This document shows positions 1 through 62,200 of a stretch of DNA of 64,000 nt, piece by piece. The notes under the pieces were generated by a model that was not told where the DNA came from, made no database searches, and saw only the letters and a list, made by a program, of their open reading frames with translations. The stretch comes from an uncultured Chloroflexia bacterium. GTDB taxonomy: Bacteria; Chloroflexota; Anaerolineae; CG2-30-64-16. The position numbers were made by a program, and so were the translations under genes. The stretch covers positions 704,001 to 768,000 of the forward strand of contig CAVZDU010000001.1 in assembly GCA_963774265.1 (NCBI GenBank), written 5' to 3'. Within the stretch, counting starts at the first letter, position 1, and every line of letters starts with the position of its first letter.

Positions 1-485
1 GGCTCCGCTACCAGGCCAGGCGCCGCGGAGAGTCGCTCGACCTCGAAATGAAAATGCGAGCCGAGCCGATCGCGTTCTTGAACTGGTCGCCGGGCAGCCT
101 CGACTGGAACGTACGCCTCAACCCGGGCGTGCCGTTGAGCCTGAAGTGTGAGACGGGCGCGAGCGAGAGTGTGCTCGATTTGCGTGACCTGAAGGTGACT
201 GAACTTAAGCTTGAGACCGGCGCCAGTAAGCTCCAGGTGACGCTGCCCGCGAGTGCGGGTTTCACGCGGGTCAAGGTGGAAGCCGGCGCTGCGCGGGTGG
301 ATCTCCGCGTCCCGGGTGGGGTTGCCGGTCGGATCCGGACCAGCGCAGGCCTTTCCTCCGTGACGGTGGACGAGACCCGCTTCCCCGGTTTTGACAACCG
401 CTATCAGTCGCCGGACTACGAGACCGCGGCCAACAAAGTCGACATCGATATCGAAACCGGTGTCGGTTCGGTGTCGGTGAGCTGA
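1..485 (+). CDS. LiaF/toastrack (DUF2154/DUF4097-like) beta-solenoid envelope protein, 5'-truncated by window edge
   Basis: Repeating 'LxxExGAS..LDL' beta-strand motifs, ending 'IDIETGVGSVSVS'. Confidence 0.65.
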   Translation, partial: LRYQARRRGESLDLEMKMRAEPIAFLNWSPGSLDWNVRLNPGVPLSLKCETGASESVLDLRDLKVTELKLETGASKLQVTLPASAGFTRVKVEAGAARVDLRVPGGVAGRIRTSAGLSSVTVDETRFPGFDNRYQSPDYETAANKVDIDIETGVGSVSVS

Positions 486-497
486 ACGAGTGCAGAA

Positions 498-557
498 GCA
501 GAGCATCCTGAGCGAAGGTCGGCACTGTTTGCCGACCGGAGTCGAAGGACGCTCTGC
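498..557. repeat. REP-like palindromic element (CCTGAGC...GTCGAAGG class)
   Basis: Outer stem GCAGAGCATCC/GGACGCTCTGC, inner stem GGTCGGCA/TGCCGACC; intergenic. Confidence 0.55.
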
Positions 558-620
558 GCTTCGTTGACGGATCCATTACGATTAAAGTATACTTCTCCCA
601 CATTCAGGGAGGAGACGTCA

Positions 621-1674
621 ATGAAGACCTCAACCAGATGCTCCGTCCTCGCTCTCGTCCTTGCGATGGTTCTCGCCATCCTCTCAACCGCGGCCCGCCC
701 CACAGAAGCAGTGTCGACCACTATCGTGATAAGTCAGGTGTATGGCGGCGGTGGCAACGTGGGCGCCACCTACACGCATGACTTTGTCGAGTTGTTCAAC
801 CGTGGCACGGCCACCGAGTCGCTGGATGGCTGGTCGATTCAGTACGCCAGCTCGACCGGCTCCAGTAACTTCGGCGCAAGCGCCACCCAGATCACGCCGC
901 TCAGCGGCTCCCTGGACCCGGGCCATTATCTGCTCGTTCAAGGCGCGTCGACGGCCGCGGTCGGTGCACCGCTGCCCATGCCCGATATCACGGATGAGAA
1001 TCCGATCACGTTGTCGGGAACGACGGGGAAGGTGGCCCTGGCGACCACTGCTGAGTCTCTCGGCTGCAACGGCGGATCCACGCCCTGCACGCCTGCGCAG
1101 CTTGCCTTGATCGTGGACCTGGTGGGCTATGGTACGGCGAACTTCTTCGAGGGAAGTGTTGCGCCTGCGCCGAGTAACACCACCTCGATCTCGCGGTGTG
1201 ACGAATGGCTGCACCGACACCGACGACAACGGTGCCGACTTCGCGACAGGTGCGCCCGCACCGCGCAGCACCGCGTCGCCGATCACGAGCTGCTCCGTTG
1301 TGGACGCGGGTCCGACAGTCATCTCCACCGTTCCCGCTGATAGCGCCGTTGGCGTGGCGCCCGACGCCGACATTTCCGTCACCTTCAGCGAACCCGTGGA
1401 CGTGACCGGCGCCTGGTTCGACCTGGCCTGCAGCCTCAGCGGTTCGCATACGGCGGGCGTCAGCGGCGGCCCGCTGGTCTTCGTTCTCGATCCCCCTGCG
1501 AGCTTCGTGGACGGCGATGCGTGCACCCTGACAATCTTGGCAGCCATGGTCATAGACCAGGACTCGAATGACCCGCCGGACAACATGGAGGCGAATTTCG
1601 TGGCCGGATTCAGCGTGAGCGCTCCGCACCTGATGAAGTTTGCCTTCATCCCCTACGTTATCGCGTCTCAGTAA
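621..1674 (+). CDS. Secreted lamin-tail-domain protein with Ig-like (Big_5) domain; one frameshift near 1200
   Basis: RBS GGAGG and ATG 621; signal peptide; '[10 protein letters not shown]...DFVELFN' LTD motif; '[10 protein letters not shown]...ISVTFSEPV' Ig-like motif in the second frame. Confidence 0.8.
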
Positions 1675-45964: not shown

Positions 45965-47337
45965 CTATCCGAGGTGTGCGCGCAACATCGCGATCTGGCC
46001 GGAGACGGCGGCTCGCGCCGTGCCGCCTGTCACCGCACGCTGCTCGACTGACTGCTCGAAATTCCACACTTCCCGCGTGCCAGACAGCCGCGCATCGATT
46101 CTGTGTAGTTCGGCTTGGGGCAGATCGCGCAGCGCACAACCCAGCTCTTCGGCGCGCTTGACCACCCGGCCCACGATGTGATGGCTCTCGCGGAACGGCA
46201 CGCCGCGGCGCACCAGCACATCGGCCAGGTCGGTCGCCAGCAGCTCATCGCCCAAAGCAGCGGCCATCCGGTCGGGCCGGATGGCCAGCGTCTGAACCAC
46301 GCCTCTGTGATGGGCAGGGCTAGCTTCAGCGTGTCGACTGCATCGAACAGCGGCTCTTTGTCCTCCTGCAGATCCTTGTCGTACGCGCTGGGCAGCCCCT
46401 TGAGCAACGTCAACATGCCGGTCAGCCCGCCCACCAGCCGGCCGGCCTTCCCGCGCAACAGTTCCAGTGCGTCTGGGTTCTTCTTTTGCGGCATCAGGCT
46501 GGAGCCGGTGCTGTAGGCGTCGGCCAGCATGACAAAACCGAACTCGCGGCTGCTCCACAGGATGAGGTCCTCGGCCAAGCGGCTGAGATGCACGCCGGTC
46601 AGCGCGGCCCAGAAGAGGAACTCAGCGACGAAATCGCGGTCGCTCACTGCGTCGAGGCTGTTAGGGCTGATCGCGGCAAAGCCCAGGTCAACGGCCAGTG
46701 CGGATCGATCGATGGGAAACGGGCAGCCGGCCAACGCACCGGAGCCCAGCGGCATCACGTCGACGCGCTTGAGCAGATCGGTCAGGCGCTCCCGGTCGCG
46801 CTGCCAGGCCCAGGCGTGGCTCAGCAGCCAGTGGCTCCAGCGGACGGGTTGCGCGGGCTGCACGTGGGTGTAGCCGGGCATCAGCACGTCGATCTCAGCT
46901 TCAGCCCGATTCGCGGCGGCAGCGATGAGCGCATCGAGTTCTTCCGCAAGCAATCCGGCTTCTGCCTTCAGCCACAGCCGCACGTCGGTCGCCACCTGGT
47001 CGTTGCGGCTGCGGCCCGTGTGCAGCTTGCCGGCGACGGGGCCGATGGTCTCGGTCAGCCGTCGCTCGACGTAGCTGTGGATGTCCTCGTCCCGGGCGCC
47101 CGCGAAGGCTGCCGAGGGTGCAGCCGCGATCTCCGCGCGGAGATTCGCCAACCCAGCGATGATCCGTTCGCGTTCTTCCTGCGTCAGCAAACCCGCCAGA
47201 TGAATCGCCTTCGCCCAGGCGACCGAGCCGGCGATATCGGCGTCCCACAGGCGCCAGTCGAACGGTAGCGACGCGTTGAAGCGTGTCATGAGCGGGTCGA
47301 TCTGGCCGGTGAAGCGGCCGCCCCAGAGTTGTGCCAC
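45965..47337 (-). CDS. argH: Argininosuccinate lyase (frameshift near 46305)
   Basis: 'LWGGRF', 'HTGRSRNDQ', 'GSSLMPQKKNPD', 'DLQEDKE', 'GVPFRESH'. Confidence 0.95.
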
Positions 47338-47340
47338 GGT

Positions 47341-48300
47341 CTACTCCCACCGCTCGCGTCGTTGAGCGCGTCCATCTCTTCCGCGGAAAGCCGTACGCCT
47401 GCCGCGCCCAGGCTCTCGTTCAGTTGCTCGACTCTGTTTGCGCCGATGATGGGCGACGTGATGACGGGCTGTGAGAGGAGCCAGGCCAGGGCCGTCTGTG
47501 TGGGGGTGAGGTTGCGGTTGCGGGCCACCTCCTCGAGTTCGGCCAGGATTCCCCAGCCACGGTCGTTGAAGTAGCGACTGCGGATGCCTTCCAGGCGCGC
47601 GCCCTGCGTTTCGGCGCCGCGCTCGATACTTGCCGGTGAGGAAACCAGCGGCGAGCGGGCTGTAAGGGATCACGCCGATACCTTGCTCCTCGCACAGCGG
47701 CTTGAGTTCACGCTCGAACTCGGCGCGGTGGGCAAGGTTATAGTGAGGCTGGAGTGAGTCGTGTCGCGTCAAATTGTGCTTATCACTGGCCCATAGGGCG
47801 CTCGTGAGCCGCCAGGCGTGGATGTTGGACGCGCCGATGTAGCGCACCTTGCCTGCATCGATCATATCATCGAGTGCTCGCAGCGTCTCGTCGAGCGGCG
47901 TGTCACGGTCGTCGGAGTGCGTCTGGTACAGGTCGATGGTGTCCGTCTGCAGTCGACGGAGCGAATCCTCGACCGCGCGGATCAGGTGTCCGCGGCTCAA
48001 CCCCTCGCCGTTTGGGCCTTCCCACATGCGGCCGCGGGCCTTAGTCGCCAATACGATGCCTTGCCGGTTGCCGCGCGCCTTCATCCACCGGCCGATGATC
48101 TGCTCTGAGACACCGCCCGGATTGCCTTCGACCCAACGGCTGTACACATCGGCCGTGTCGATGAAGTTGCCACCGGCTTCGACGAATGCGTCCATCACCG
48201 CGAAGCTCATCGCCTCGTCGGCGGTCCAGCCCCACTGCATTGTGCCCAGGCATAATTCAGACACCTTCAGGCCTGTCCGTCCCAACCTTCGATAGTCCAT
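47341..48300 (-). CDS. Aldo/keto reductase (frameshifted near 3' end)
   Basis: '[16 protein letters not shown]', 'DTADVY', '[13 protein letters not shown]', 'PYSPLAAG'. Confidence 0.9.
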
Positions 48301-48340
48301 ACCGACACCCCTCTCAAATCCGTGCGGGTAGCCACCCGAT

Positions 48341-49540
48341 TCATGTACGATAGTGCCCGTTGATATCCACGTACGCATGGCTCAGGTCGCACGTCCATAC
48401 CGTGGCGCAACCTTCGCCGAGACCAAGAACGACTGAAACGGCGATTTCCGGACCGTTGAAGATGGCCGTCGCTTCTTCCTCGGCGTAGGCGAGTGGTCTG
48501 CCTTGGCCGACGAGCTGGACCCGGCCCGCGCTGGCGACCGCATTATCGGTGCCAGCCGCGATCCACAGGTCAGCTCGCATCGGGTCGACGTGCGCGCCGG
48601 AGTAGCCGACCGCGGCCAGGATGCGCCCCCAGTTGGCATCCCCACCGTAGATCGCGGTCTTCACCAGCGGCGAATTGGCCACGGCCTTGGCCGCAGCGCG
48701 TGCGTCCATTGCCGTCTCGGCGCCAGATATCCGGATCGTCACGAACTTCGTGGCGCCCTCGCCGTCACGCACGATCTGCTGGGCCAGGTCGGTGCACAGC
48801 TCAGTCAGCGCGGCAGAGAATACATCACCGTCCACCGTTCCCGCCGCGCCGTTCGCCAGGGCCAGCACGGTATCGTTGGTGCTCATGTCGCCGTCGATGC
48901 TGATGGAATTGAAGCTTCGATCTACGGCTGAGCGCAGCGCGGCATCCAGCGCGTTCGGCGACACGGCGGCATCGGTGACAATGACGCTGAGCATCGTGGC
49001 CATGTTCGGATGGATCATGCCCGCGCCCTTAGCCATGCCCCACAGCCGGGCGGCGCCGGCCTGCCGGTAGGCCACCTTGGGACGCGTGTCTGTGGTCATG
49101 ATCGCGGCTGCCGCAGCGTCAAATCCATCCACCGACAGCGCGCCCGCGGCAGCCCTTGCGCCCGCCGCGATGCGTTCCATCGGGAGTCGCGGCCCAATGA
49201 CGCCAGTGGACATCACTGCCACCGACCGGGCCGGCGTGCCGAACGCGGCCTCCGCAAGGCGCGCCATCTCCGCGGCGTCGGCCAATCCTTCCTCACCCGT
49301 ACATGCATTTGCGCAGCCGGAGTTGATGACCACGCCCTGCAGACCGGTGAGATTCCCGGCGAGCAACGCACGATCATAGAGCACTGGTGCGGCAGGAAAC
49401 GCGTTGCGCGTGAACATGCCCGCGGCCAAGCACGGTCGATCGCTGACGACCACCGCGAAATCGGCGGCACCGGTTCTCTTTATGCCGGCCGCAACACCCG
49501 CGAAGCGGTAACCTTGTGGGATGACGTTGACGTCGTTCAA
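48341..49540 (-). CDS. argJ: Ornithine acetyltransferase
   Basis: '[10 protein letters not shown]', 'STGVIG', 'IMTTDT', '[14 protein letters not shown]', 'DGEGATK', 'TCDLS..YV.ING.YRT'. Confidence 0.95.
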
Positions 49541-49568
49541 ATCAACCTCCGCCGTGCGCCTGACTGTT

Positions 49569-49612
49569 GTAGAGACGTTGCATGCTAGAGACGTTGCATG
49601 CAACGTCTCTAC
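49569..49612. repeat. GTAG REP palindrome with partial internal duplication
   Basis: GTAGAGACGTTGCATGC followed by TAGAGACGTTGCATGCAACGTCTCTAC. Confidence 0.8.
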
Positions 49613-49626
49613 AGGAATGGATGTGC

Positions 49627-50895
49627 CTAATCTCGCTTGAACGCCGAGTAATCCGGGCCAACGTGTTTGCTTCGCCCCGTGCCTTCGACGTCGAGCATGG
49701 CTGCAACCTTCATCGGCAGGCCGAACAGCTTGATGAAGCCCTCGGCATCCTTCTGATTGTACACATCCTCCTCGCCGAACGTGGCGTAATCCTCGCGGTA
49801 CAGGCTGTAGGGCGACTTCCGGCCCACGAGGGTGACGTTGCCCTTGTACAGCTTTAGTCGGGACGTGCCGGTGACATGCTTCTGAGTGACATCGACGAAC
49901 GCGTCCAGTGCTTGCCGAAGCGGGGTAAACCATTGCCCGTTGTACACCAGCTCCGCGTATTTGAGGGCGAACATCTGTTTGTATTGCAGGGTCTGCTTGT
50001 CGAGGCAGATCTGTTCCAGACCATCGTGCGCTTCGTAGAGGATCGTGCCGCCGGGTGTCTCGTAGACGCCGTGCGATTTCATGCCGACCAGCCGGTTCTC
50101 AACGATATCGGTGCGGCCTACCCCGTGGACGCCGCCGATTTGGTTCAGCTTCTCGATCAGCTTGATGGGCCCCATTGCTTCGCCGTTGATGCGCTTGGGG
50201 ACGCCCTCTTCGAAGTATATTTCGACGAACTCGGCCTGATCCGGTGCGCTCTCTGGGCTTTGCGTAAGTTGGAACATCTCCTCTTTCGGCTCGTTCCAGG
50301 GATCTTCCAGTCCACCGCCCTCATGGCTGAGGTGCCAGAGGTTGCGATCGCGGCTGTAGATCGACTTGATGGTGGCTGTTACGGGCACGTTGTGCTCGGC
50401 CGCATACTTGAGCGCGTCCTCACGGCTGCGGATGTGCCATTCGCGCCACGGCGCAATGATCTTCAGCTTGGGGTTCAGCGCCATGACGGTTAGCTCGAAT
50501 CGCACCTGGTCGTTGCCCTTGCCAGTGGCGCCGTGGGAGATTGCATCTGCGCCCTCCATCTCCGCGATTTCGACCATGCGTTTGGCGATCAGGGGACGCG
50601 CGAAGGAGGTGCCCAGCAGGTAATCCCGTTCATAAATCGCGCCCGCCTTGAGGGTGGGGTAGATATACTCGGTGATGAACTCCTCGCGCAGGTCCTCGAT
50701 GTAGAGTTTGCTTGCACCCGAGGCGAGCGCCTTAGCCTCCAGGCCCGAAAGCTCCTCTTCCTGTCCGAGGTTAGCGCAGAAACAGATCACCTCGCAGCCG
50801 TAGTTCTCCACGAGCCACGGCACGATGCACGATGTGTCAAGCCCGCCAGAATAGGCGAGCACGACCTTTGAAGCGGACTTCTTTGCAGCTGACAT
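49627..50895 (-). CDS. argG: Argininosuccinate synthase
   Basis: '[10 protein letters not shown]', '[14 protein letters not shown]', 'YETPGG'. Confidence 0.97.
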
Positions 50896-50924
50896 TGTGT
50901 TTTTAGCTCCTCATGAAAGCGGTT

Positions 50925-51950
50925 TTACCGGGAAAGGTTGATGACGTCGCGCAGCATCGCTCCTGCGGTCGGGATAGGCCCACGCTCATCCACCTTGAGT
51001 TGTTGCAAACCCATGATGTCGGTGTCGAAAACAATGCCCATCTCCCAGCCCGACACGCCGGCGAGAAAATCTCCCATTGGAAGCCACTGCGGCTCAACCG
51101 ACAGCCGGTAGCCGTCCCCGGCTCGCTCAGCCGTCGCCACGAGTTTCACCACTTCCCCCCGGCTCGCCCCTTCCAGGATTTGTTCGGGCGTGATGTCCGT
51201 GATGCCGGTCACCGGGTGGACGTCCCGGAGCGTCGCAGGCATCCCCAAGATGCTGTTGGCGATGATCACCAGCTTGTTGGCCGTGTCCCACCCGCCTACA
51301 TCCAGGGTGGGATCTGCCTCCATGATGCCGTCGAGTTGCGCCTGCCTGAGCGCCTGGCTGTAGCTTCCACCCAGGCCCATGGCCGCGAGAATTGAGTTGC
51401 TGGTCGAATTGAAGATGCCGCGGACACTGCGGATGTCGCAGCCGACCAGGTCGCGCTGACCGATGTTGACGACTGGCAGCGCACCGCAGACGGTCGCGCT
51501 GTAAGCGAAACCAACGCCGGCTGATTGCGCTGCGGCGGTGAGATCGACGTAAGCATGAACCAGCGGCCCCTTGTTTGCCAGGACTACGCCCATACCCCGG
51601 CCAATGGCCGTGCGGACGCAGTCCAACCCGGGCTGGCCGGTCTTGAGATTGACGGGAGAGGCTTCAAGCACCAGATCGGCTGGGGCCCGCGCAATCACGT
51701 CGGGGCCCGATAATCCTGCTTCGCCGCCCTCGAACAGCCCCACGCCGCGGCCGCTCTGCTTGTGGCTGAGCAGCGCCGCGGGGTCAATGCCTGTTCCATC
51801 GATGAGGCCGCCCGAAGAGTCCGCAGCCGCGGTCAGGGCTAGCGATAGTCCGTAGCGCTCCCGCAGCAGCACTTCCTTGTCAATCATCAGCTGCAGAAAC
51901 GCTTTTCCAACATTTCCCAGCCCAATCAGCGCTAATTTCACCTGTCGCAT
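50925..51950 (-). CDS. hom: Homoserine dehydrogenase
   Basis: 'IGLGNVG', 'ANKGP', 'ATVCGALP', 'EADPTLDVGGWDTANK'. Confidence 0.85.
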   Translation of the reverse strand: MRQVKLALIGLGNVGKAFLQLMIDKEVLLRERYGLSLALTAAADSSGGLIDGTGIDPAALLSHKQSGRGVGLFEGGEAGLSGPDVIARAPADLVLEASPVNLKTGQPGLDCVRTAIGRGMGVVLANKGPLVHAYVDLTAAAQSAGVGFAYSATVCGALPVVNIGQRDLVGCDIRSVRGIFNSTSNSILAAMGLGGSYSQALRQAQLDGIMEADPTLDVGGWDTANKLVIIANSILGMPATLRDVHPVTGITDITPEQILEGASRGEVVKLVATAERAGDGYRLSVEPQWLPMGDFLAGVSGWEMGIVFDTDIMGLQQLKVDERGPIPTAGAMLRDVINLSR

Positions 51951-52007
51951 GTATGCCTCACTAGATGCCCAGCACTGAAGCCGCCGGGCGGTGGTTGGAC
52001 GACCGGA

Positions 52008-52550
52008 TTATGAACCCCAGGCATGCCTGGCGAAAGCAGGCCGCAGTGAGATGGCGCCCCGGGTTTCGGTCACCACGGCGGGTTCGCGCAGGTTAAGCAA
52101 CACGGCAATCTCATCGCATGCATCGAACTTCTGGCAGTAGATGCATTCCTGCCAGATCTTCGGGGTGATGGTCCAGCGATCTACGGTGGTGAACCCGCAC
52201 TTGTTGAAGAATTCCTCGCTGAGCGTGAGCGCACAGATGCGATCGTAGCCCGCATCGCGCGCCATCACAACCAGCACTTCGACCAGCCGCCGGCCTAGCC
52301 CCGTGCCGCGCGCCTCAGGTGCGACTGCCAACGAACGCAGCTCGGCGAGGCGGGGGGTCAGGGGCACGTTCGATCCGCACCCCACCACTTTGCTCCCCGC
52401 CTCGGCTACGATGAACCCAGGCAGCGCGCGCTTGATCTGTTCCTCAGTGCGGAAAAGCATCAGATTCTGAGCTGCGTAGCCGTTCACCACGCTGAGAATG
52501 CCGTCGATGTCGCTCTCTTTGGCAGTGCGTATTTTGATGTCCATGTCCAT
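52008..52550 (-). CDS. argA: Short GNAT N-acetylglutamate synthase
   Basis: 'LAELRSLAV', 'GTGLGR', 'KIWQECIYC....CDEIA'; located in the arg operon. Confidence 0.8.
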   Translation of the reverse strand: MDMDIKIRTAKESDIDGILSVVNGYAAQNLMLFRTEEQIKRALPGFIVAEAGSKVVGCGSNVPLTPRLAELRSLAVAPEARGTGLGRRLVEVLVVMARDAGYDRICALTLSEEFFNKCGFTTVDRWTITPKIWQECIYCQKFDACDEIAVLLNLREPAVVTETRGAISLRPAFARHAWGS

Positions 52551-52561
52551 TCCCCGTTGTG

Positions 52562-53749
52562 TCATAGTTCGGCGAGGATCGCTGTCAGCCTCTCGATCAG
52601 CAGATCGATCTCTTCGCGGCTGATGGTCAGTGGCGGCACGAGCCGCAACGTGTTCGGTCCGGCATTGATGAGCAGCAACCCATGCTGGTAGCCCGCCTGA
52701 ATCACGTCGTTGGCTGGGATCGTAAGATCTGCGGCTACCATCAGCCCGACCCCCCGCACGTCGGTGATGCACGGCGAATTGATCTCTTGCAGCCGTTCCA
52801 AGAGGTATGCGCCCTTCTGTGCGACCTCGGTCAGGAATTCCGGTTGATTGACCAACTTCAGCACGGCATTAGCTACCGAGGCGACCAGCGGCGAGGCTGC
52901 GAAGGTGCTGCCGTGGTCGCCCGGATGCATGACATCCGCGACCGCCTGGGTCATCAAGACTGCGGCCATCGGTAGCCCACCGGCCAGCGGCTTTGCGGTG
53001 GTGAGAAGATCGGGCGTCACGCCATATTGCTGGTGCGCCCACAGCGTTCCTGTCCGCCCCAGGCCGCACTGCACCTCGTCGAAAATCAGCAGAGCATTGT
53101 GGGCATCGCAGAGGGCGCGCAGTTCTGCAAGGAAGGCCTGCGTGGCGGGATGGATGCCGCCCTCGCCCTGCACCGGCTCCACGATCACCGCGCACACGTC
53201 GTCATCAATGGCCTGTGCCGCGGCCTGCGGATCGTTGAATTCCGCAAAGCGAACACCGGGTAGGAGCGGCCGGAAGGGCGCCTGGTACTTCTCGCGCGGG
53301 GTGGCTGCCAGCGCACCAAAGGTGCGGCCATGGAACACGTTGGTGAACGCGACAATTGCGTGTTTTTGGGGGCCGAAACGATCGTGCGCCCACTTGCGGC
53401 TGAACTTGAATGCAGCTTCGTTTGCCTCCGCGCCCGAGTTGCAGAAGAAGACGCGCTCGGCGAAGCTGCTCGCGCACAGCGCGGCGGCCAGGTGGGCTTG
53501 CGGCGCGGTGTGATAGAGATTGGAGACGTGCCACAGCTTGCCCGCCTGCTCATTGAGAGCGGCGACGAGATCCGGGTGTGCGTGCCCCAGCGCGTTTACC
53601 GCGATGCCGGCAGCACAATCCAGGTAGCCGTTTCCCTCGGAGTCATACACCCAGGAGCCCTTCCCGTGGTCCAACACAAAGGGGGGGCGGGCATAGGTCT
53701 GGAGGACGAAGTTCTGTTCGAGGTCAATTGCTTCGTTTGTCGTAGTCAT
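52562..53749 (-). CDS. argD: Acetylornithine aminotransferase
   Basis: 'HVSNLY', 'NSGAEANE', 'FHGRT', 'DEVQCGLGRTG', 'AKPLAGG'. Confidence 0.95.
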   Translation of the reverse strand: MTTTNEAIDLEQNFVLQTYARPPFVLDHGKGSWVYDSEGNGYLDCAAGIAVNALGHAHPDLVAALNEQAGKLWHVSNLYHTAPQAHLAAALCASSFAERVFFCNSGAEANEAAFKFSRKWAHDRFGPQKHAIVAFTNVFHGRTFGALAATPREKYQAPFRPLLPGVRFAEFNDPQAAAQAIDDDVCAVIVEPVQGEGGIHPATQAFLAELRALCDAHNALLIFDEVQCGLGRTGTLWAHQQYGVTPDLLTTAKPLAGGLPMAAVLMTQAVADVMHPGDHGSTFAASPLVASVANAVLKLVNQPEFLTEVAQKGAYLLERLQEINSPCITDVRGVGLMVAADLTIPANDVIQAGYQHGLLLINAGPNTLRLVPPLTISREEIDLLIERLTAILAEL

Positions 53750-53756
53750 CAGTATT

Positions 53757-54521
53757 CTATCCTTTGATGATAGCCGTGCCGCCGTCGTTCGCCAGCCCGG
53801 CCAGGTCCGTAATGACAGCCTGGTACACGCCGCTCAGCACTGCTTCGGTTGCAGAGCGCACTTTCGGGATCATGCCGCCGGTGATGTGACCGTCCGCGAT
53901 CAAGCCCTCGATCTGCTTGACGGTCAGCGCGCGCATCGTCCTGCCGGTTACCTGCACACCCGGTACGTTGCTGACGAACACCAGCCGCGCCGCCTCGACG
54001 GCTTTTGCGACCCCGGCGGCCACGTGGTCCGCATTGACGTTATATGCCAACCCATCCTCACCCAGCGAGACGGGCGAAATGACCGGGGTCACGCCGAGGT
54101 CGAGCACTTGCAGGAGCGCCTCGCCGTTCACATGTTGCACCGCACCCACCCGGCCCAGGCTGCGGCCGTTGACCGACAACGGCGTGACGCGCACCAGGCC
54201 CATGTCCACTCCTGAAAGGCCCACCGCATCCACACCACCGTTCACCAGGGAGCGCACCAGTCGCGTGTTGACGACCCCGTTCAGCACCATCTCCACTAGC
54301 CGCAGGCTTTCCTCCGACGTGGCGCGCAGCCCCTCGACGGTCTCGAAGCTCACTCCGAGCTGATCGTGAAGCGCCGCAATCTCCTTGCCCCCGCCGTGGA
54401 CGATGATGACAGCGTGGTCGACGAAGAGTCCCTTGACCGCCTGGACAAAGCCGAAGAGAAAGTCCTCATCCTCGACCTGGTTGCCGCCGATCTTGAGCAC
54501 CAGCACGCTCTTCTCGTTCAT
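53757..54521 (-). CDS. argB: Acetylglutamate kinase
   Basis: 'LKIGG', 'VHGGG', 'GLRAT', 'NVNAD', 'GGMIPK'. Confidence 0.93.
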   Translation of the reverse strand: MNEKSVLVLKIGGNQVEDEDFLFGFVQAVKGLFVDHAVIIVHGGGKEIAALHDQLGVSFETVEGLRATSEESLRLVEMVLNGVVNTRLVRSLVNGGVDAVGLSGVDMGLVRVTPLSVNGRSLGRVGAVQHVNGEALLQVLDLGVTPVISPVSLGEDGLAYNVNADHVAAGVAKAVEAARLVFVSNVPGVQVTGRTMRALTVKQIEGLIADGHITGGMIPKVRSATEAVLSGVYQAVITDLAGLANDGGTAIIKG

Positions 54522-55555
54522 CAGAGCAGCCCCATCCTCTCGTCCAGGCCCAACATGATGTTCATGTTCTGCACTGCCTGGCCGGATGCACCCTTGATCA
54601 GGTTGTCGAGGGTGGCGGTCACGATCAGCAGATCGGTCCCCGGCACGAAGGTCAAACCGAGCGCACAGAAATTGGTGTAGACCGTATGCGCCAGGGTGGC
54701 AACCTGGCCCGGCTTCAGCAGGTGGATGAACGGCTCGTTCGCGTAGGCTTCCTCGTAAGACGCTCTGACGACGGCTTCGCTGATGCCGGACGGGAGTGTC
54801 ACGTAGAGGGTCGAGAGAATGCCGCGGTTCGTAGGGAGAAGGTGGGGCGAGAAGATCAGTTGGAGCGGGGCCTGGCCGTTGGTGAGTTGGCTGAGGGCGT
54901 GTAATTCCTGCTCCATCTCGACCAGGTGCCGGTGTGTCCGGCCGATGCTGTACGGGCTCATGTTCTCATTCGTTTCGACAAAGTGCGTCTTGAGGGAGAG
55001 ACCCCGGCCCGCGCCTGATACGCCCGACTTGCTGTCCGCGATGACTGCGCCCTGGAGCCAACCGGCGCTGGCCAGCGGCGCCAGGCCCAGGATGATGCTG
55101 GTCGCGTAGCAGCCTGGGTTGGCGACGAGGTGTGTCGCTTTGATCTCCGCGCGATGGAGCTCGGGCAGCCCGTAAACGGCTTCAGCCAGCCAGGTCGGTT
55201 CGTTGTGTGGGTGACCGTACCAGGTTTCGTAGGCTGCGGCGTCATGAATCCGGTAATCCGCACTGAGATCGACAACCCGTGCGCCGGCCCGCCGCGCGGC
55301 GGCCACCGGCGCCTGCGCCGTTGCGTGCGGAAGGCAGCAGAACACTACGTCCGCCGTTGCCAAGTCCGCATCAGCTGCTTTGACCAGGACCGTGTCGCCG
55401 ATGAAGGGCGGAACTGGGAAGACATCGCCGAACCGTTGGCCTGCCGAGTTCTCCGATGTCAGCCAGGCGATCTCCGCCAGGGGATGCCGCGCCAGGATCT
55501 TGAGCAACTCCAACCCGGTGTATCCGGTTGCGCCGATAATGCCGATTTTGATCAT
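54521..55555 (-). CDS. argC: N-acetyl-gamma-glutamyl-phosphate reductase
   Basis: 'GATGYTG', 'DLSADYR', 'ANPGCY', 'SGVSGAG', 'DNLIKGASGQA'. Confidence 0.96.
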   Translation of the reverse strand: MIKIGIIGATGYTGLELLKILARHPLAEIAWLTSENSAGQRFGDVFPVPPFIGDTVLVKAADADLATADVVFCCLPHATAQAPVAAARRAGARVVDLSADYRIHDAAAYETWYGHPHNEPTWLAEAVYGLPELHRAEIKATHLVANPGCYATSIILGLAPLASAGWLQGAVIADSKSGVSGAGRGLSLKTHFVETNENMSPYSIGRTHRHLVEMEQELHALSQLTNGQAPLQLIFSPHLLPTNRGILSTLYVTLPSGISEAVVRASYEEAYANEPFIHLLKPGQVATLAHTVYTNFCALGLTFVPGTDLLIVTATLDNLIKGASGQAVQNMNIMLGLDERMGLL

Positions 55556-55590
55556 TCTTCACCCCATGCTTCTGCATGCACTGGACCAAC

Positions 55591-55623
55591 AAAAAAACCA
55601 GCACCCGGGTCTGGGTGCTGGTT
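55591..55623 (-). terminator. Attenuator terminator in the arg leader
   Basis: AACCAGCACCC-agaccc-GGGTGCTGGTT followed by TTTTT, about 35 nt before the argC start. Confidence 0.85.
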
Positions 55624-55676
55624 CGCCACGTTTCTGTCTTAGACGTTCGGCTCGCGCGAGCTCCTGCGACCGGGTG

Positions 55677-55787
55677 CTAACCCGTTCTCCTGGTGCTACG
55701 ACGACGAGGGAAGCGAAGGCTAAAAGCCAATGTATCTCCGAACGTTGGGATATGCTTCTGGTGCAACAACTCTCTGCTGCTGCCCAT
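55677..55787 (-). CDS. Putative Arg-rich leader peptide (36 aa) of the arg operon
   Basis: MGSSRELLHQKHIPTFGDTLAFSLRFPRRRSTRRTG*; lies between promoter and terminator; too short for the ORF track. Confidence 0.75.
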   Translation of the reverse strand: MGSSRELLHQKHIPTFGDTLAFSLRFPRRRSTRRTG

Positions 55788-55802
55788 CTTTTGACGGGCG
55801 AG

Positions 55803-55831
55803 AGTGTAGCACAGGTCTCAGATGGTGTCAA
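55803..55831 (-). promoter_or_regulatory. Sigma70 promoter of the arg operon
   Basis: TTGACA-17 nt-TACACT with extended TG. Confidence 0.75.
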
Positions 55832-55931
55832 ACTACCGGACCCCGCGGCTTGCGAGGCGCCGGGCACTTCAACGATCCGCAGGATCGCAAGTGCAGGGCG
55901 CCTGAGCCTCGATGCGCTTCTCTGGACAGCC

Positions 55932-56006
55932 ATGAAAACGTACAAGAACCTGTATCCACGGATTTGTGATTTCGCCAACCTGTACGCGGCGTATCGTCGG
56001 GCCGCT
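55932..56006 (+). pseudogene. N-terminal remnant of a reverse transcriptase (DGR/group II-like)
   Basis: MKTYKNLYPRICDFANLYAAYRRA, after which similarity is lost; large hairpin at 55855-55903. Confidence 0.6.
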
Positions 56007-56149
56007 GGCGCTGCTGCCTCTTGGGGTGATCATGTTGTTGTTGCCCGTGTTTCCGCCCTTGACTGCGCACTGAATCGGTTTCTGGCGGGCCCGCGCGAGT
56101 TGTGGCATACTTGTGTCATGGCCCGTTGCCGTGCACATGGAGGACTCGG

Positions 56150-56602
56150 ATGGTTGGCCTTGAAGCGCTACGGAAAAGCGACCTCTTTGAGGGTCTGAGC
56201 GACGACGAGCTGGCCGCCATCGCGAAAATGGCGCGCGAGGAGACCTACGATGTGGGAGCGATTATTTTTCGCGAAAACGACCCCGCGAAAAGCGTCTACA
56301 TCGTCCGTGAGGGCCGGGTCGCGATCCTGATCGACATCGGCCGGGGCAAGCAGACCGTGATCGACACGATATGTCGCAACGGCTCCTTCGGCTGGTCCGC
56401 GATGGTGCCGCCGTACATCCTGACCGGCACCGCCAAGACGATGGAGCGGACTCGGGTCATCGTCCTTACCGGCCAGGACTTGCGCGAGCTGTGCCGGATG
56501 AGCTGCAGCACCTGCTACACCATCATGGAAAAGCTGGCGACCATCATCTCCAGCCGGCTCAAGGACACCCGTTTGCAGTTGATCAGCCTGGTGTACGGTT
56601 GA
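56150..56602 (+). CDS. Stand-alone cyclic-nucleotide-binding (Crp-like) domain protein, no HTH
   Basis: 'LFEGLSDDEL', 'IFRENDP...YIVREGRV', 'FGWSA'. Confidence 0.85.
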   Translation: MVGLEALRKSDLFEGLSDDELAAIAKMAREETYDVGAIIFRENDPAKSVYIVREGRVAILIDIGRGKQTVIDTICRNGSFGWSAMVPPYILTGTAKTMERTRVIVLTGQDLRELCRMSCSTCYTIMEKLATIISSRLKDTRLQLISLVYG

Positions 56603-56656
56603 TCCAAGACCGGACCTAGTGGCCGGCGTTGGCATTCCAGGCATGATAACCCACTG

Positions 56657-56690
56657 AAAACCTGCTTTCCTGGTGAACGCAGGTTTTTTT
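56657..56690 (+). terminator. Intrinsic terminator
   Basis: AAAACCTGC...GCAGGTTTTTTT. Confidence 0.55.
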
Positions 56691-56824
56691 ATGGTGTTTT
56701 TGGGTACGTCTTTGTTTACGAATTTCGTTTGTTTGCAGCGTATTTGTCACGAAAATAGGTAGCTTTTTGCTTGTCTGTTGACACTTGTCTGCGAACGTTA
56801 GATAATTCACAACTGGAGGGACTC

Positions 56825-57364
56825 ATGGTTCACACCCTGGACGAGTGCGATCGCCAGATCATCAGCCTGCTGCAAAAGGATGGACGCGCATCGAATGTCG
56901 AGATCGCCCGGTCCTTGGGTCTGGCTGAGGGTACGGTCCGCAAGCGCCTGGAACGGCTGTTTGACCAGGGGATCATCCGCATGATGGCCGTGGCAGATCC
57001 AGCCAGGCTGGGGCTGACCGCGTCGGTTTTCATCGGCATCCAGGCCGAACTGGGCCAGTTGAACGAGGTCGCGCAAAGGTTGGCAGCTATCCCTGAGGTG
57101 CGTTGCGTCAACATCGTGACCGGCGCGTATGACATGATGATCGAAGCCGTCTTGCCCTCGGGTGAACATCTGCTTTCCTTCCTGATTGACAAGGTCTCGA
57201 CCATTCCGGGCATCAAACGGACGGAGACGAGCCATGTGATGCAGGTGGTCAAGCAGGCGTGCGATTGGGCTGTGCCGGAATTGACTACTGCACCCGCCAG
57301 CTCCGGTCGCGGTGCGACGCCGTCGGCCACTCAGGTCATGCCCGGCGCAATCGTGGTTTCCTGA
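56825..57364 (+). CDS. Lrp/AsnC family transcriptional regulator
   Basis: 'LDECDRQIISLLQKDGRAS...LGLAEGTVRKR', 'VTGAYD'. Confidence 0.92.
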   Translation: MVHTLDECDRQIISLLQKDGRASNVEIARSLGLAEGTVRKRLERLFDQGIIRMMAVADPARLGLTASVFIGIQAELGQLNEVAQRLAAIPEVRCVNIVTGAYDMMIEAVLPSGEHLLSFLIDKVSTIPGIKRTETSHVMQVVKQACDWAVPELTTAPASSGRGATPSATQVMPGAIVVS

Positions 57365-57377
57365 GGGGATACGAGCC

Positions 57378-57719
57378 ATGAACACATCTGAACGCGCCAG
57401 GCAGATCGCCACGGCGATCGAGCAGGCCAGGCACGGGTGGCCCATCGGCGCCGCGTTCACGGTGATCGTGCGCGGCGGCTGCGCCGCCTGTGACCCCGGC
57501 GCATGCCGCGAGTGCGGCCATCTGTTCACCGGCGAGATCTATACGATCGAGCACCTGACGCGGGGCAAACGAGTGCTCTGCGATAGAACTGTGCATTACC
57601 TGACCCACGGTGTCACCCGCTATGAAACCGGCTACGTCGTTCATGGCGAGGTGGTGGCCGTAGAGATTGATGTGGAGGAATTAGCGGCCTACCTGGATTT
57701 GCAGGTTGGCGTTATGTGA
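57378..57719 (+). CDS. Small Cys/His-rich hypothetical protein
   Basis: RBS GAGG; 'CAACDPGACRECGH...CDRTVHYLTH'. Confidence 0.55.
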   Translation: MNTSERARQIATAIEQARHGWPIGAAFTVIVRGGCAACDPGACRECGHLFTGEIYTIEHLTRGKRVLCDRTVHYLTHGVTRYETGYVVHGEVVAVEIDVEELAAYLDLQVGVM

Positions 57720-59257: not shown

Positions 59258-62200
59258 ATGAGTAAAGACACTCCTGTCCGTATCGGCGTCTACGTCTGCC
59301 ACTGCGGCTCCAACATCGCCGGCACGGTGGATGTCTTCGACGCGGCCGCGTACGCGGCCACGCTGCCGAACGTTGTCGTTGCGCGCGAGTACAAATACAT
59401 GTGCTCCTCCACCGGCCAGGACGTGATCAAGCGCGACATCGCGGAGTTCGGCCTGAACCGGGTAGTCGTGGCCTCGTGTTCCCCGCGCATGCACGAGCCG
59501 ACATTCCGCGCTGCGCTGGCAGAGGCCGGCCTCAACCCCTACTTGCTGGCGATGGCCAACATCCGCGAGCACTGCTCCTGGATCACCAAGAACAAGGCGG
59601 TAGGCACGGCCAAGGCCAAGACTCTGATCTCCGGCGCGGTGCACCGCGTGGCCTGGCAGGAGCCGCTGACCGAGCGCGAGGTGCCTGTGACGCCGGTTTC
59701 GCTGGTCGTGGGCGGCGGCATCGCCGGCATCCAGGCCGCGCTGACCATTGCCGACGCTGGCTACCACGTCTTCCTGGTGGAGAAAGATACGTCCATCGGC
59801 GGGCGCATGGCCCAATTGGATAAGACCTTCCCCACCCTGGACTGCTCGGCCTGCATCTTGACGCCCAAGATGGTGCAGGTGGCCCGCCATCCCAACATCA
59901 CCCTGCTGACCAACGCTGAGGTGACGGATGTGTCGGGCTACGTCGGCAATTTCCAGGTCAAGGTGAAGCAGAAGCCGCGCTACGTGGACGTGAGCAAGTG
60001 CTCCGGCTGCGGCGAGTGCACGGTCGTCTGCCCGGTGTCAGTGCCCCACGAGTTCGACCAGCTCCTCTCCCGCCGCAAGGCGATCTACCGGCTCTTCCCG
60101 CAGGCGGTGCCGGGCGCGTTCGCCATCGACAAGCGGGGCGTCCCGCCCTGCCGCGCGGCCTGCCCGGCCGGCGTCAACGTCCAGGGCTACGTGGCGCTGA
60201 TCGGCGCCGGCAAGTACGCCGAGGCGTTGGAGCTGATCCGGCGCGAGCTGCCCTTTCCCGGCATCTGCGGCCGCGGTCTGTCCGCACCCGTGCGAGGCCG
60301 CGTGCAGTCGGGCGCAGGCCGAAGGGGCCGTGTCCATCATGGCGCTGAAGCGGTTCGTCGCCGACTGGGAACGTGAGGAGAGGCGGAGAGGTGAAGCCCC
60401 TGCAGGGGAGCAGGGGGGCGCTTCGCGCGGGCAGAGGCGCACAGGAACGAAGGGGTTATGGAGCGGGTCGCGGTGGTCGGGGCTGGACCGGCCGGGCTGG
60501 CCTGCGCCTACCAGCTTGCCAAGAAGGGCTACGGCGTCACCGTCTTTGAGGCAATGCCGGTGGCCGGCGGCATGATGGCGGTGGGCATTCCGGAATACCG
60601 CCTGCCACGCGACGTGTTGGAGTACGAGATCGAGGGCATCCGGAGGCTGAGCGTCGATATCGTCACGAACAGCGCCCTGGGCCGGAACTTCACGCTGGAC
60701 GATCTGTTCCGCCAAGGCTTCCGCGCCGTTTCCTGGGCATCGGCGCCCACCGGGGGCAGAAGCTGAAGGTGCCGGGCGAGGATCTGCCGGGCGTGGTCGA
60801 CGGGATCACTTTCCTGCGCGAGATCAGCCTGGGCCGCCAGCGCAACGGTGGGCAACGCTTGGCCAAGGTGGCCGTCATCGGTGGCGGCAACACGGCTGTG
60901 GATGCGGCCCGCTCCGCGCTACGGCTGGGCGCTGAGAAAGTGACCGTCATCTACCGGCGCAGCCGGGCCGAGATGCCCGTCAGCCCGTGGGAGCTGGCAG
61001 ATGCGGAGGCTGAAGGGGTCAAGATCGAGTACCTGGCTGCCCCGGCCCGCATCATTGGAGGCACGGGCGTCCGGGCGCTTGAGTGCATCCGCATGGAGTT
61101 AGGCGAACCGGATGAGACCGGCCGCCGCCGGCCAATGCCGATCCTCGGCAGTGAGTTCACGATCCTGGTTGACACTGTGATCACCGCAATCGGCCAGTTG
61201 CCAGAGACGAGCGCCATCGGTGGCGTGGAGCTAACCCCCTGGGGCACCATCGCAGCCGATGCAGAGACTGGTGAGACTTCCCAGCCCGGCGTCTTCGCGG
61301 GCGGTGATGCTGTGGGCGGCGCGCCAGCGACGGTCATTGATGCGGTTGCCGCGGGCAACCGGGCGGCCGAGTCCATCAGCCGCTATCTCAATGGGATGGA
61401 CTTGCGTGAGGGTCGGGTCTTTGGCGTCCAGCCGGAGCGGATCGCCAAGAAGGAAGTCAGCGAGGAGATGGCCTTCTGCCTGCGTTCCGAGATGCCGGCC
61501 GCTGCCGCCGGTTGACCGCGTACGGCAGCTTCGCCGAGGTCGAGCTGGGCCTGGACGAGGCCAGCGCGCGCCGCGAGGCCGAGCGCTGCCTGGACTGCGC
61601 CGTCTGCTCGGAGTGCCTGGAGTGCGTCAAGGCGTGCAGCCCCGCGGCCATCAATCATCGGATGCAAGAGGAGACGCTCGAGCTGGATGTTGGCACGATC
61701 ATCCTGGCGACCGGACACAAGTTCTTCGACCCTGCCGCGGTTGCAGCAGTATCACTACGGCCGCTTCCCGAACATCCTTGACAGCATGGAGTTCGAGCGC
61801 ATGTGCAATGCTTCGGGCCCCACCGGCGGCGAGATCCTGACGACCGACGGCCGGACGCCGGAGAGCATGGTCTTCATCCACTGCGTCGGCTCGCGCGACT
61901 CGCACGCCAACACCTACTGCTCACGGCTGTGCTGCATGCACGCCATGAAGCAGGCCCACCTGGCCAAGGAGCGCACTGGCGCCGATGTATATGAGCTGTA
62001 CATCGACATCCGCGCCGCAGGCAAGGGCTACGAAGAGTTCTACGAGCGGGTGCAGCGCGAGGGGGTGATCTTCATCCGCGGCCGCGGGGCCGAGGTAATC
62101 CCCATGGAAGGCAAGCTGGTGGTAAAGGCCGAGGATACCGGCCTCGGGCGTCCCATCATCTTGCCGGTGGACATCGTGGTGCTGGTGACCGGCATGGAGC

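Follow-up and report, generated by a model that had tools for sequence, protein, structure and literature searches.

A conserved arginine-codon leader and terminator upstream of argC in uncultured Anaerolineae, probably a ribosome-mediated attenuator

Repression by ArgR is the textbook form of control for arginine synthesis, and leader-peptide attenuation is the textbook form of control for the His, Trp, Leu, Thr, Phe, and Ile/Val operons. The arginine operon of an uncultured Chloroflexia bacterium (contig CAVZDU010000001.1, positions 704,001 to 768,000; this whole stretch of 64,000 nt is referred to as the window, and coordinates given without a prefix are its own) raises the question of whether arginine genes might also be governed through a translated leader. 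The operon occupies 46030–55555 of the minus strand and comprises, by NCBIfam matches, argC, argB, argD, a GNAT N-acetyltransferase gene, hom, argG, argJ, an aldo-keto reductase gene, and argH. It is preceded by a leader of ~200 nt between promoter and terminator, all elements of which lie on the minus strand. A first-pass annotation of this DNA had read the leader as a stretch of Arg codons controlling an intrinsic terminator, and we arrive at the same reading: the open reading frame (ORF) is conserved, its hairpin covaries, and neither ArgR in the genome nor a T-box in the leader was found. Judged from sequence, the best explanation for this locus is probably a leader-peptide attenuator of transcription, mediated by the ribosome and keyed to arginine.

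A conserved leader ORF linked to argC

The first-pass annotation described a 36-codon ATG ORF at 55787–55677, which ends in RFPRRRSTRRTG and its stop codon and contains six Arg codons, namely CGC (55715–55713), three consecutive CGT (55706–55698), AGG (55691–55689), and AGA (55688–55686). The ORF and all six codons are present as described, but comparison with relatives moves the start and shortens the cluster. ATG 55787 lies out of frame in two leaders, L002 and L005, and in two others, L006 and L007, a stop codon interrupts its frame; moreover, the two distal Arg codons (AGG and AGA) are not conserved, whereas an RFPR.R core is. The leader ORF that is shared with relatives has 17 codons (LAFSLRFPRRRSTRRTG, 55730–55677), with a TTG start at 55730–55728, a TAG stop at 55679–55677, and a Shine-Dalgarno (SD) sequence, GGAG, at 55739–55736, 5 nt ahead of the TTG. 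For this comparison, argC and its flanks were taken from 60 relatives, and 28 of the 30 best loci, all from the window's own family, carry the leader. In each of these 28, GGAG is followed after a spacer of 5–10 nt by an ATG, GTG, or TTG start, and the family leader peptide can be written as (M)AFSLRFPRRR plus 4–11 residues. Upstream lies a sigma-70-type promoter at 55831–55803 (TTGACA at 55831–55826, a 17-nt spacer, and TG-n-TACACT with the -10 box at 55808–55803), whose layout of TTGACA, 17–18 nt, and G[CTA]TAnn[CT]T is common to 28/28 family loci; promoter-like sites numbered 2 in the 3 kb scanned versus 0.8 expected.

Across a larger set of 35 aligned leaders from 34 genomes, the SD, start codon, frame, and RFPR.R core are kept without exception, with ORF lengths ranging from 14 to 30 codons. 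Codon counts in these leaders delimit the putative regulatory codons as CGC-TTC-CCT-CGT-CGT-CGT (R F P R R R, 55715–55698). The six-codon core is RFPRRR, with four Arg, in 31/35 leaders and RFPRPR or RFPRAR in the other four. The Arg before F is encoded by CGC in 16 leaders, CGA in 10, CGT in 7, and CGG in 2, while F is TTC in 21 and TTT in 14, and P is CCT in 24, CCC in 8, and CCG in 3. Thus, the R, F, and P of the core vary only by synonymous change, and the insertions that separate the N-terminal AFSL from the core measure 1, 5, 10, or 15 codons and are always in frame. Since every R, F, and P change is synonymous and every insertion consists of whole codons, the pattern of change looks like that of a translated ORF. 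The three codons after P are CGT in 31, 31, and 34 of the 35 leaders, respectively. CGT is a minor codon in the window's own genome (G000), where its share of the Arg codons is 13% across the whole genome and 5% within the arg genes. ARAGORN detected tRNA-Arg anticodons GCG, TCG, CCG, CCT (two), and TCT, and no tRNA-Arg(ACG) among the 50 tRNAs of this 84%-complete genome, which hints that CGU may be read through wobble by the sole CGY-reading tRNA-Arg found (anticodon GCG, G000:C2:3216-3291). The same program reported a CUA-anticodon tRNA labelled Pyl (anticodon CTA, G000:C1:1112899-1112990) and a tRNA-SeC (G000:C2:93922-94017) in this genome.

A covariance model (R1) built from the 28 leaders found a single copy in the genome of origin and, among 37 family genomes (uncultured Anaerolineae), 35 copies spread over 34; each copy lies on the argC strand, 13–190 nt upstream of that gene. 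The Arg-rich short ORF that the first-pass annotation had suggested seeking upstream of argC in relatives is therefore conserved in 34/37 family genomes, and the three genomes that have no R1 copy, which are 63–76% complete, also have no argC orthologue. In a 151-genome sample of the class, strong R1 matches were confined to the genome of origin and 3/3 family members. Metagenome contigs contributed at least 27 further copies; in three pattern scans, R1 confirmed 9/100, 23/100, and 4 more of 19 loci among the matches listed, the others being mostly unrelated DNA of high G+C content, and the confirmed carriers among those matches are labelled Anaerolineae, Anaerolineales, Chloroflexota, or uncultured Chloroflexia and are all metagenome-assembled. 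Weak R1 matches in three other families turned out to be two ordinary terminators and one Pro-rich leader rather than the arg element. The latter (L156; G137:C11, ~60310-60455, minus strand) consists of an ORF MPAIRPPSLPAPEHRT with 5 Pro in 16 residues followed by a terminator, and the downstream gene looks by eye like a prolyl-tRNA synthetase gene, so L156 is possibly a proline attenuator. A single genome is weak evidence for a leader of this kind, because 4 of 102 strict terminator-like sites in the genome have a short ORF with RRR ending ≤80 nt upstream; it is the conservation that lifts the argC leader above this chance level.

Leader helices and the candidate antiterminator

The Arg codons form part of a long hairpin. 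Its 5′ strand, region 1 (55709–55680, delimited from folds and covariation), comprises the Pro-Arg-Arg-Arg codons plus the six that follow them, and its 3′ strand, region 2 (55680–55651, hereafter X), consists of TTAGCACCCGGTC (55680–55668), which includes the stop codon, and GCAGGAGCTCGCGCGAG (55667–55651). CCN-CGT-CGT-CGT and the codons that follow pair with a 3′ strand of the form ACCCGGTC...CGCGCGAG, leaving the stop codon at the tip, and in independent minimum free energy (MFE) folds this hairpin scored -20.7 to -30.0 kcal/mol in 28/28 leaders. A second helix, P1, closes its base by pairing GTTCGG (55743–55738), which shares with the SD GGAG the two bases at the 5′ end of the latter, with CCGAAC (55650–55645). 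In an alignment that was guided by the model, fitted to the proposed structure, and hence favors it, 94.4% of the hairpin 1:2 and P1 cells are paired across 35 rows and 94.8% across 52 distinct rows, as compared to 32–46% after sliding the 3′ partner by 1–3 columns. Two-sided changes were found in 26 cells of the 52 distinct rows versus a shuffled mean of 7.5, and this number was reached in 0/500 shuffles. Compensatory changes affect 4 of the 6 P1 pairs, and the third position of the Pro codon changes together with its partner in region 2 (UA 28, CG 10, UG 6, AU 1, and other 7 among the 52 rows). Similarly, leaders of the RPR type carry GCGCGGGG in region 2 where those of the RRR type have GCGCGCGAG. 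The controls with slid partners and with shuffling, together with the independent MFE folds, argue that hairpin 1:2 and P1 are real helices. RNAalifold run on MAFFT alignments did not find the long hairpin, because its variable parts were misaligned, while it recovered the terminator together with two helices, GCC:GGC and TCGG:CCGG, the latter of 4 bp. The GCC:GGC helix belongs to a segment at 55643–55624 that the alignment fold resolves into a small hairpin TCTAAGACAGA (55643–55633) and a GGC able to pair with GCC at 55652–55650; it shows one compensatory change (GCT:AGC, in L010).

The intrinsic terminator at 55624–55591 is the sole terminator-like site within 54500–57500 and ends 35 nt before the argC start at 55555. 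Its stem (55624–55595) has 12 pairs and a loop of 6 and is followed by a T-run at 55597–55591; the 5′ arm CCAGCACCC (55621–55613), the loop AGACCC, and the 3′ arm GGGTGCTGG (55606–55598) are invariant or nearly so among the 52 distinct rows. The stem is kept in 52/52 of these, with 98.5% of cells paired. A match of this stem to a miRNA family of Rfam was set aside as a chance match.

As to what might compete with this terminator, the first-pass annotation had noted that AGCACCCGG (55678–55670), which lies within the TTAGCACCCGGTC part of X, is exactly complementary to CCGGGTGCT (55608–55600). This is correct for the window, where the 9-bp competitor helix can form, but only 4–5 bp of it are available in leaders whose terminator loop ends in CCA. 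The annotation had also considered the geometry of this competitor to be unusual, a concern that falls away because the helix forms the outer portion of a more extensive complementarity that links X with the whole terminator. With terminator pairs disallowed, X (55680–55651) in many leaders folds against the whole terminator strand: the 5′ arm is matched by the G-rich part of X, and the loop and 3′ arm by AGCACCCGGTC, so that the previously noted helix grows to 12 pairs in the window. Compared to random genomic segments, the X:terminator duplex was stronger in 35/35 leaders (mean z -1.9), with p<0.05 in 19/35 and p=0.025 in the window itself; compared to shuffled X, p<0.05 was obtained in 12/35. 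Columns of the extended antiterminator have 81.5% of cells paired versus 29–51% when slid, and in one leader (L025) GGTC has become GATC in X and GACC has become GATC in the terminator loop. The stop codon falls inside X in 35/35 leaders; therefore, a terminating ribosome would be expected to cover X, as the classical model requires. With this compatibility and these modest statistics, X is a plausible antiterminator strand.

The proposed mechanism would operate as follows. Transcription would start a few bases past the -10 box, and the 17-codon ORF would be translated as RNA polymerase proceeds. In the absence of a ribosome, or after its departure, region 1 would pair with X while P1 closes the base and occupies part of the SD, so that the terminator could fold and transcription would end before argC. 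If charged tRNA-Arg were scarce, a ribosome would be predicted to stall at the CGT run and occupy region 1; the freed X could then pair with the nascent terminator, binding the 5′ arm through its G-rich part and the loop and 3′ arm through AGCACCCGGTC, which would block the terminator and allow the operon to be read through. With plentiful arginine, the ribosome would reach the stop codon inside X, cover X, and leave, whereupon the terminator would form.

Folding calculations favor this scheme in direction, since the mean cost of a fold without the terminator is 6.0 kcal/mol with the ribosome on the Arg codons and 11.8 kcal/mol with the ribosome at the stop, and is lower for the stall in 31/35 leaders, although this gap partly reflects the longer free RNA of the stalled state. 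A number of further points also weigh against an arginine attenuator of the classical type. Equilibrium folding favors the terminator, whose probability exceeds 0.8 even with a stalled ribosome in 24/28 leaders; attenuators are thought to act kinetically, and terminator dominance at equilibrium is not unusual among them. A simple antiterminator, in which the G-rich region 2 pairs with the 5′ arm, was rejected as insufficient, given a mean z of +0.3 against shuffled region 2 and no more than a slight advantage over random segments of the genome (mean z -0.66). The extended antiterminator shows no covariation, as 112/500 shuffles reach the observed value, and a shuffle control of the stalled state gave values <0.05 in 3/13 leaders and >0.2 in 7/13, with the remaining three, the window's own (0.06) among them, at 0.06–0.085. 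All of the leaders are related, so counts across them overstate their independence. The classical model also requires neither the strict conservation of F and P in the core nor a conserved module in the 5′ part of the leader (described below), and a leader from another family, L030, has a related peptide with a single Arg.

Other regulators and competing explanations

Several established regulators were sought. The first-pass annotation had reported no argR in the window, and this extends to the whole of its 84%-complete genome, in which neither the N- nor the C-terminal ArgR domain (PF01316 and PF02863) has a match; PF02863 is likewise matched in 0/61 relatives of the class (25 families, 38 genomes of high quality), while 8 of 14 control genomes do match. 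A scan of 55400–56000 against all Rfam families, with E values up to 10, returned no match to the T-box, the other explanation that the annotation had proposed checking, and none to the His, Leu, Thr, Trp, or Phe leader families. No leader of the arg type was found at argF elsewhere in the same genome. The ornithine carbamoyltransferase match there (G000:C2:20836-21742, plus strand) falls in two frames, and the break between them, at ~21096/21098, suggests either a frameshift or an error in the assembly.

The comparison was then widened to 12 argC loci belonging to other families in the class. In seven of these, an Arg-rich short ORF is followed by a terminator 25–99 nt from argC, and the leader peptides are unalike: MQRPARDRRRN..., MTVAFIRFPRIRRLE..., MMTVFAHVLRRREASH, ...SRRFPE...GRRPRPE..., ...GRRFSRPSRRPYPGSG, ...VRLPRAIRSRPDR, and ...SPRSPRRLL.... 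Among the remaining loci, argC lies within an operon in three and a contig end cuts one, and the last is L030 (G057:C250), where a terminator and an ORF MMYSCFPKPRPDNTPP stand upstream of argC; this ORF has one Arg and resembles the RFPRPR variants. Because the Arg codons used differ between the families (CGT, CGA, AGG, CGC, and CGG), these leaders argue that what would be sensed is arginine rather than one particular codon, and the stall-versus-stop direction of the folding calculation is the same as in the window's family in 7/7. A second candidate for leader-peptide attenuation was found in the genome of origin (L209, G000:C7:436300-438150). It has a TTGACA-17-TATGAT promoter, a 33-codon ORF with F-Y-Y-Y-F (1563–1664, minus strand), a strong terminator with a T-run at ~1505–1545 (minus strand), and a gene at 220–1470 (minus strand) that matches an AroH-type chorismate mutase fused to a prephenate dehydratase. 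With an FYYYF leader ORF and terminator placed before such a gene, this style of control appears to be in use in this genome.

One alternative to an arginine-keyed attenuator of the classical type is that the peptide itself does the sensing, with RFPRRR in the exit tunnel stalling the ribosome on free arginine or a pathway intermediate, in the manner of the fungal arginine attenuator peptides or SpeFL, and the RNA switch reading the stalled ribosome, not tRNA charging. The core would suit such a role in that R, F, and P are kept in 35/35 leaders while third positions vary freely, a related VAFIRFPRIRR occurs in another family that has no R1 match, and L030 retains FP.P with its one Arg; a precedent is SpeFL (orf34), a short bacterial leader whose paired Arg codons can, according to the excerpted source, share in sensing (PMC6386406). 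Yet the leaders of other families share the Arg run only and not F-P (MQRPARDRRRN, VLRRRE), the covariation of the Pro-codon third position with region 2 places part of the conservation at the RNA level, and there is no likeness to the HIRR core as quoted for orf34. Moreover, a biosynthetic operon needs to be off at high arginine, whereas a stall on the Arg codons would turn it on. We consider a sensor of this kind unlikely. The antiterminator, the F-P residues, and the 5′ module nonetheless leave a small chance that RFPRRR acts as an arrest-peptide sensor coupled to the intrinsic terminator, with the 5′ module as a second input; for instance, Pro, which sits just ahead of the Arg run, might be slow as a peptidyl donor, or arginine or ornithine might be sensed directly.

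The 5′ module (55792–55751) is also an argument for a trans-acting factor. It is conserved in the leader alignment and consists of AAAAGATGG (55792–55784), a variable hairpin, and CCAGAAGCATA (55761–55751), and neither a conserved pairing partner nor an Rfam match was found for it. Pairing of the module with the terminator was rejected, as the only matches were A-tract/U-tract or lineage-specific ones. Purine-rich strands beside the base of its hairpin could make a G-A motif. A protein or small ligand acting on this module or on the long hairpin might decide termination, leaving the ORF an accessory that could, for example, set the basal level only. This would give the otherwise unexplained module a role and draw on the weakness of the antiterminator evidence, and a gene of the Lrp/AsnC family lies ~1 kb upstream of the leader. 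It would not, however, account for the conservation of the SD, start codon, frame, and Arg run, nor for the finding that the leaders of other families are unrelated and share only the Arg-rich ORF and terminator, and the leader has no match to an Rfam family; control by such a factor seems unlikely. The Lrp/AsnC-family gene (56771–57364, plus strand) is on the opposite strand, has its best NCBIfam match, below the cut-off, to the LysM type, and carries a TTGACA-17-GATAAT promoter-like site at its 5′ end (56778–56806). Finally, a constitutive or generally translation-coupled attenuator with no specific sensing, or an Arg run that is just a by-product of a G+C-rich hairpin, is very improbable, for while RRR ORFs do occur near 4/102 terminator-like sites at chance-level criteria, CGN codons are common in DNA of 62.6% G+C, and the terminator dominates at equilibrium, the leader is linked to argC in 34/34 family genomes with an orthologue, Arg-rich leaders of different sequence precede argC in 7/12 loci of other families, and the first core Arg uses four Arg codons and never a non-Arg codon.

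Within the operon itself, the genes that are not arg genes encode a homoserine dehydrogenase (50925–51950), the GNAT N-acetyltransferase (52008–52772), whose best match, PRK07757, falls slightly below its cut-off, and the aldo-keto reductase (47341–48378), all on the minus strand. The longest frame for ArgJ (48341–49933, minus strand) gives 530 aa but runs into argG and matches the family only from residue 138 on; the actual start of ArgJ probably lies further downstream.

Comparison with known systems and significance

An arginine-keyed attenuator of this form would resemble trpL, hisL, leuL, thrL, pheL, and ilvL. As in these, a short ORF containing a series of codons for the very amino acid that the operon makes stands upstream of a biosynthetic operon, a hairpin includes the putative regulatory codons, an intrinsic terminator precedes the first structural gene, and a ribosome terminating at the stop would cover the alternative strand. 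Four of five sequence-level features of the classical attenuators are present, namely the ORF with its ribosome binding site, the codon cluster, the terminator, and hairpin 1:2. It would differ from them in that the amino acid is arginine, the candidate antiterminator pairs with both terminator arms and the loop, P1 joins the SD region with the opposite side of the hairpin, and a conserved 5′ module and conserved non-Arg residues (F and P) are added.

The nearest case with Arg codons is the speF leader (orf34, SpeFL) of Salmonella and E. coli, in which Arg codons likewise follow one another within a short leader ORF. According to the excerpted account of the Salmonella leader, ribosome pausing at these codons under low arginine changes the fold of the mRNA, and the system has ornithine decarboxylase as its target, Rho-dependent termination, RNase G decay, and an HIRR core (PMC6386406). 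The leader described here has instead an intrinsic terminator, an arginine-synthesis operon, and a peptide with no similarity to orf34 as that account presents it. ArgR with its ARG boxes and the Arg T-box leaders act on the same pathway and respond to arginine supply, but here the candidate sensing element is a translated ORF. The fungal arginine attenuator peptide also places an upstream ORF in command of an arginine-pathway gene; it is encoded by the upstream ORF of arg-2/CPA1 and is eukaryotic, translational, and a sensor of free arginine.

Full-text literature searches, whose scope did not extend to supplementary tables and most subscription journals, did not find leader-peptide attenuation of bacterial arginine synthesis. 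In excerpts from Seliverstov et al. 2005, T-boxes are the one form of RNA-level control named for arginine genes, and the arginine operons of Actinobacteria are described as having no conserved upstream RNA regulatory structure (PMC1262725), and a term search finds no mention of arginine in the portion of Naville and Gautheret 2010 that it covers (PMC2965389). Gene callers and Rfam overlook short leader ORFs such as this one. With two covarying helices and a stop codon in the candidate antiterminator strand, the leader is a compact candidate for an arginine-responsive switch. If the reading is true, an arginine version would add a missing entry to the catalogue of attenuators, in a class in which no ArgR was found in 61 genomes, and it would explain how the arginine pathway is regulated in these uncultured Chloroflexota.

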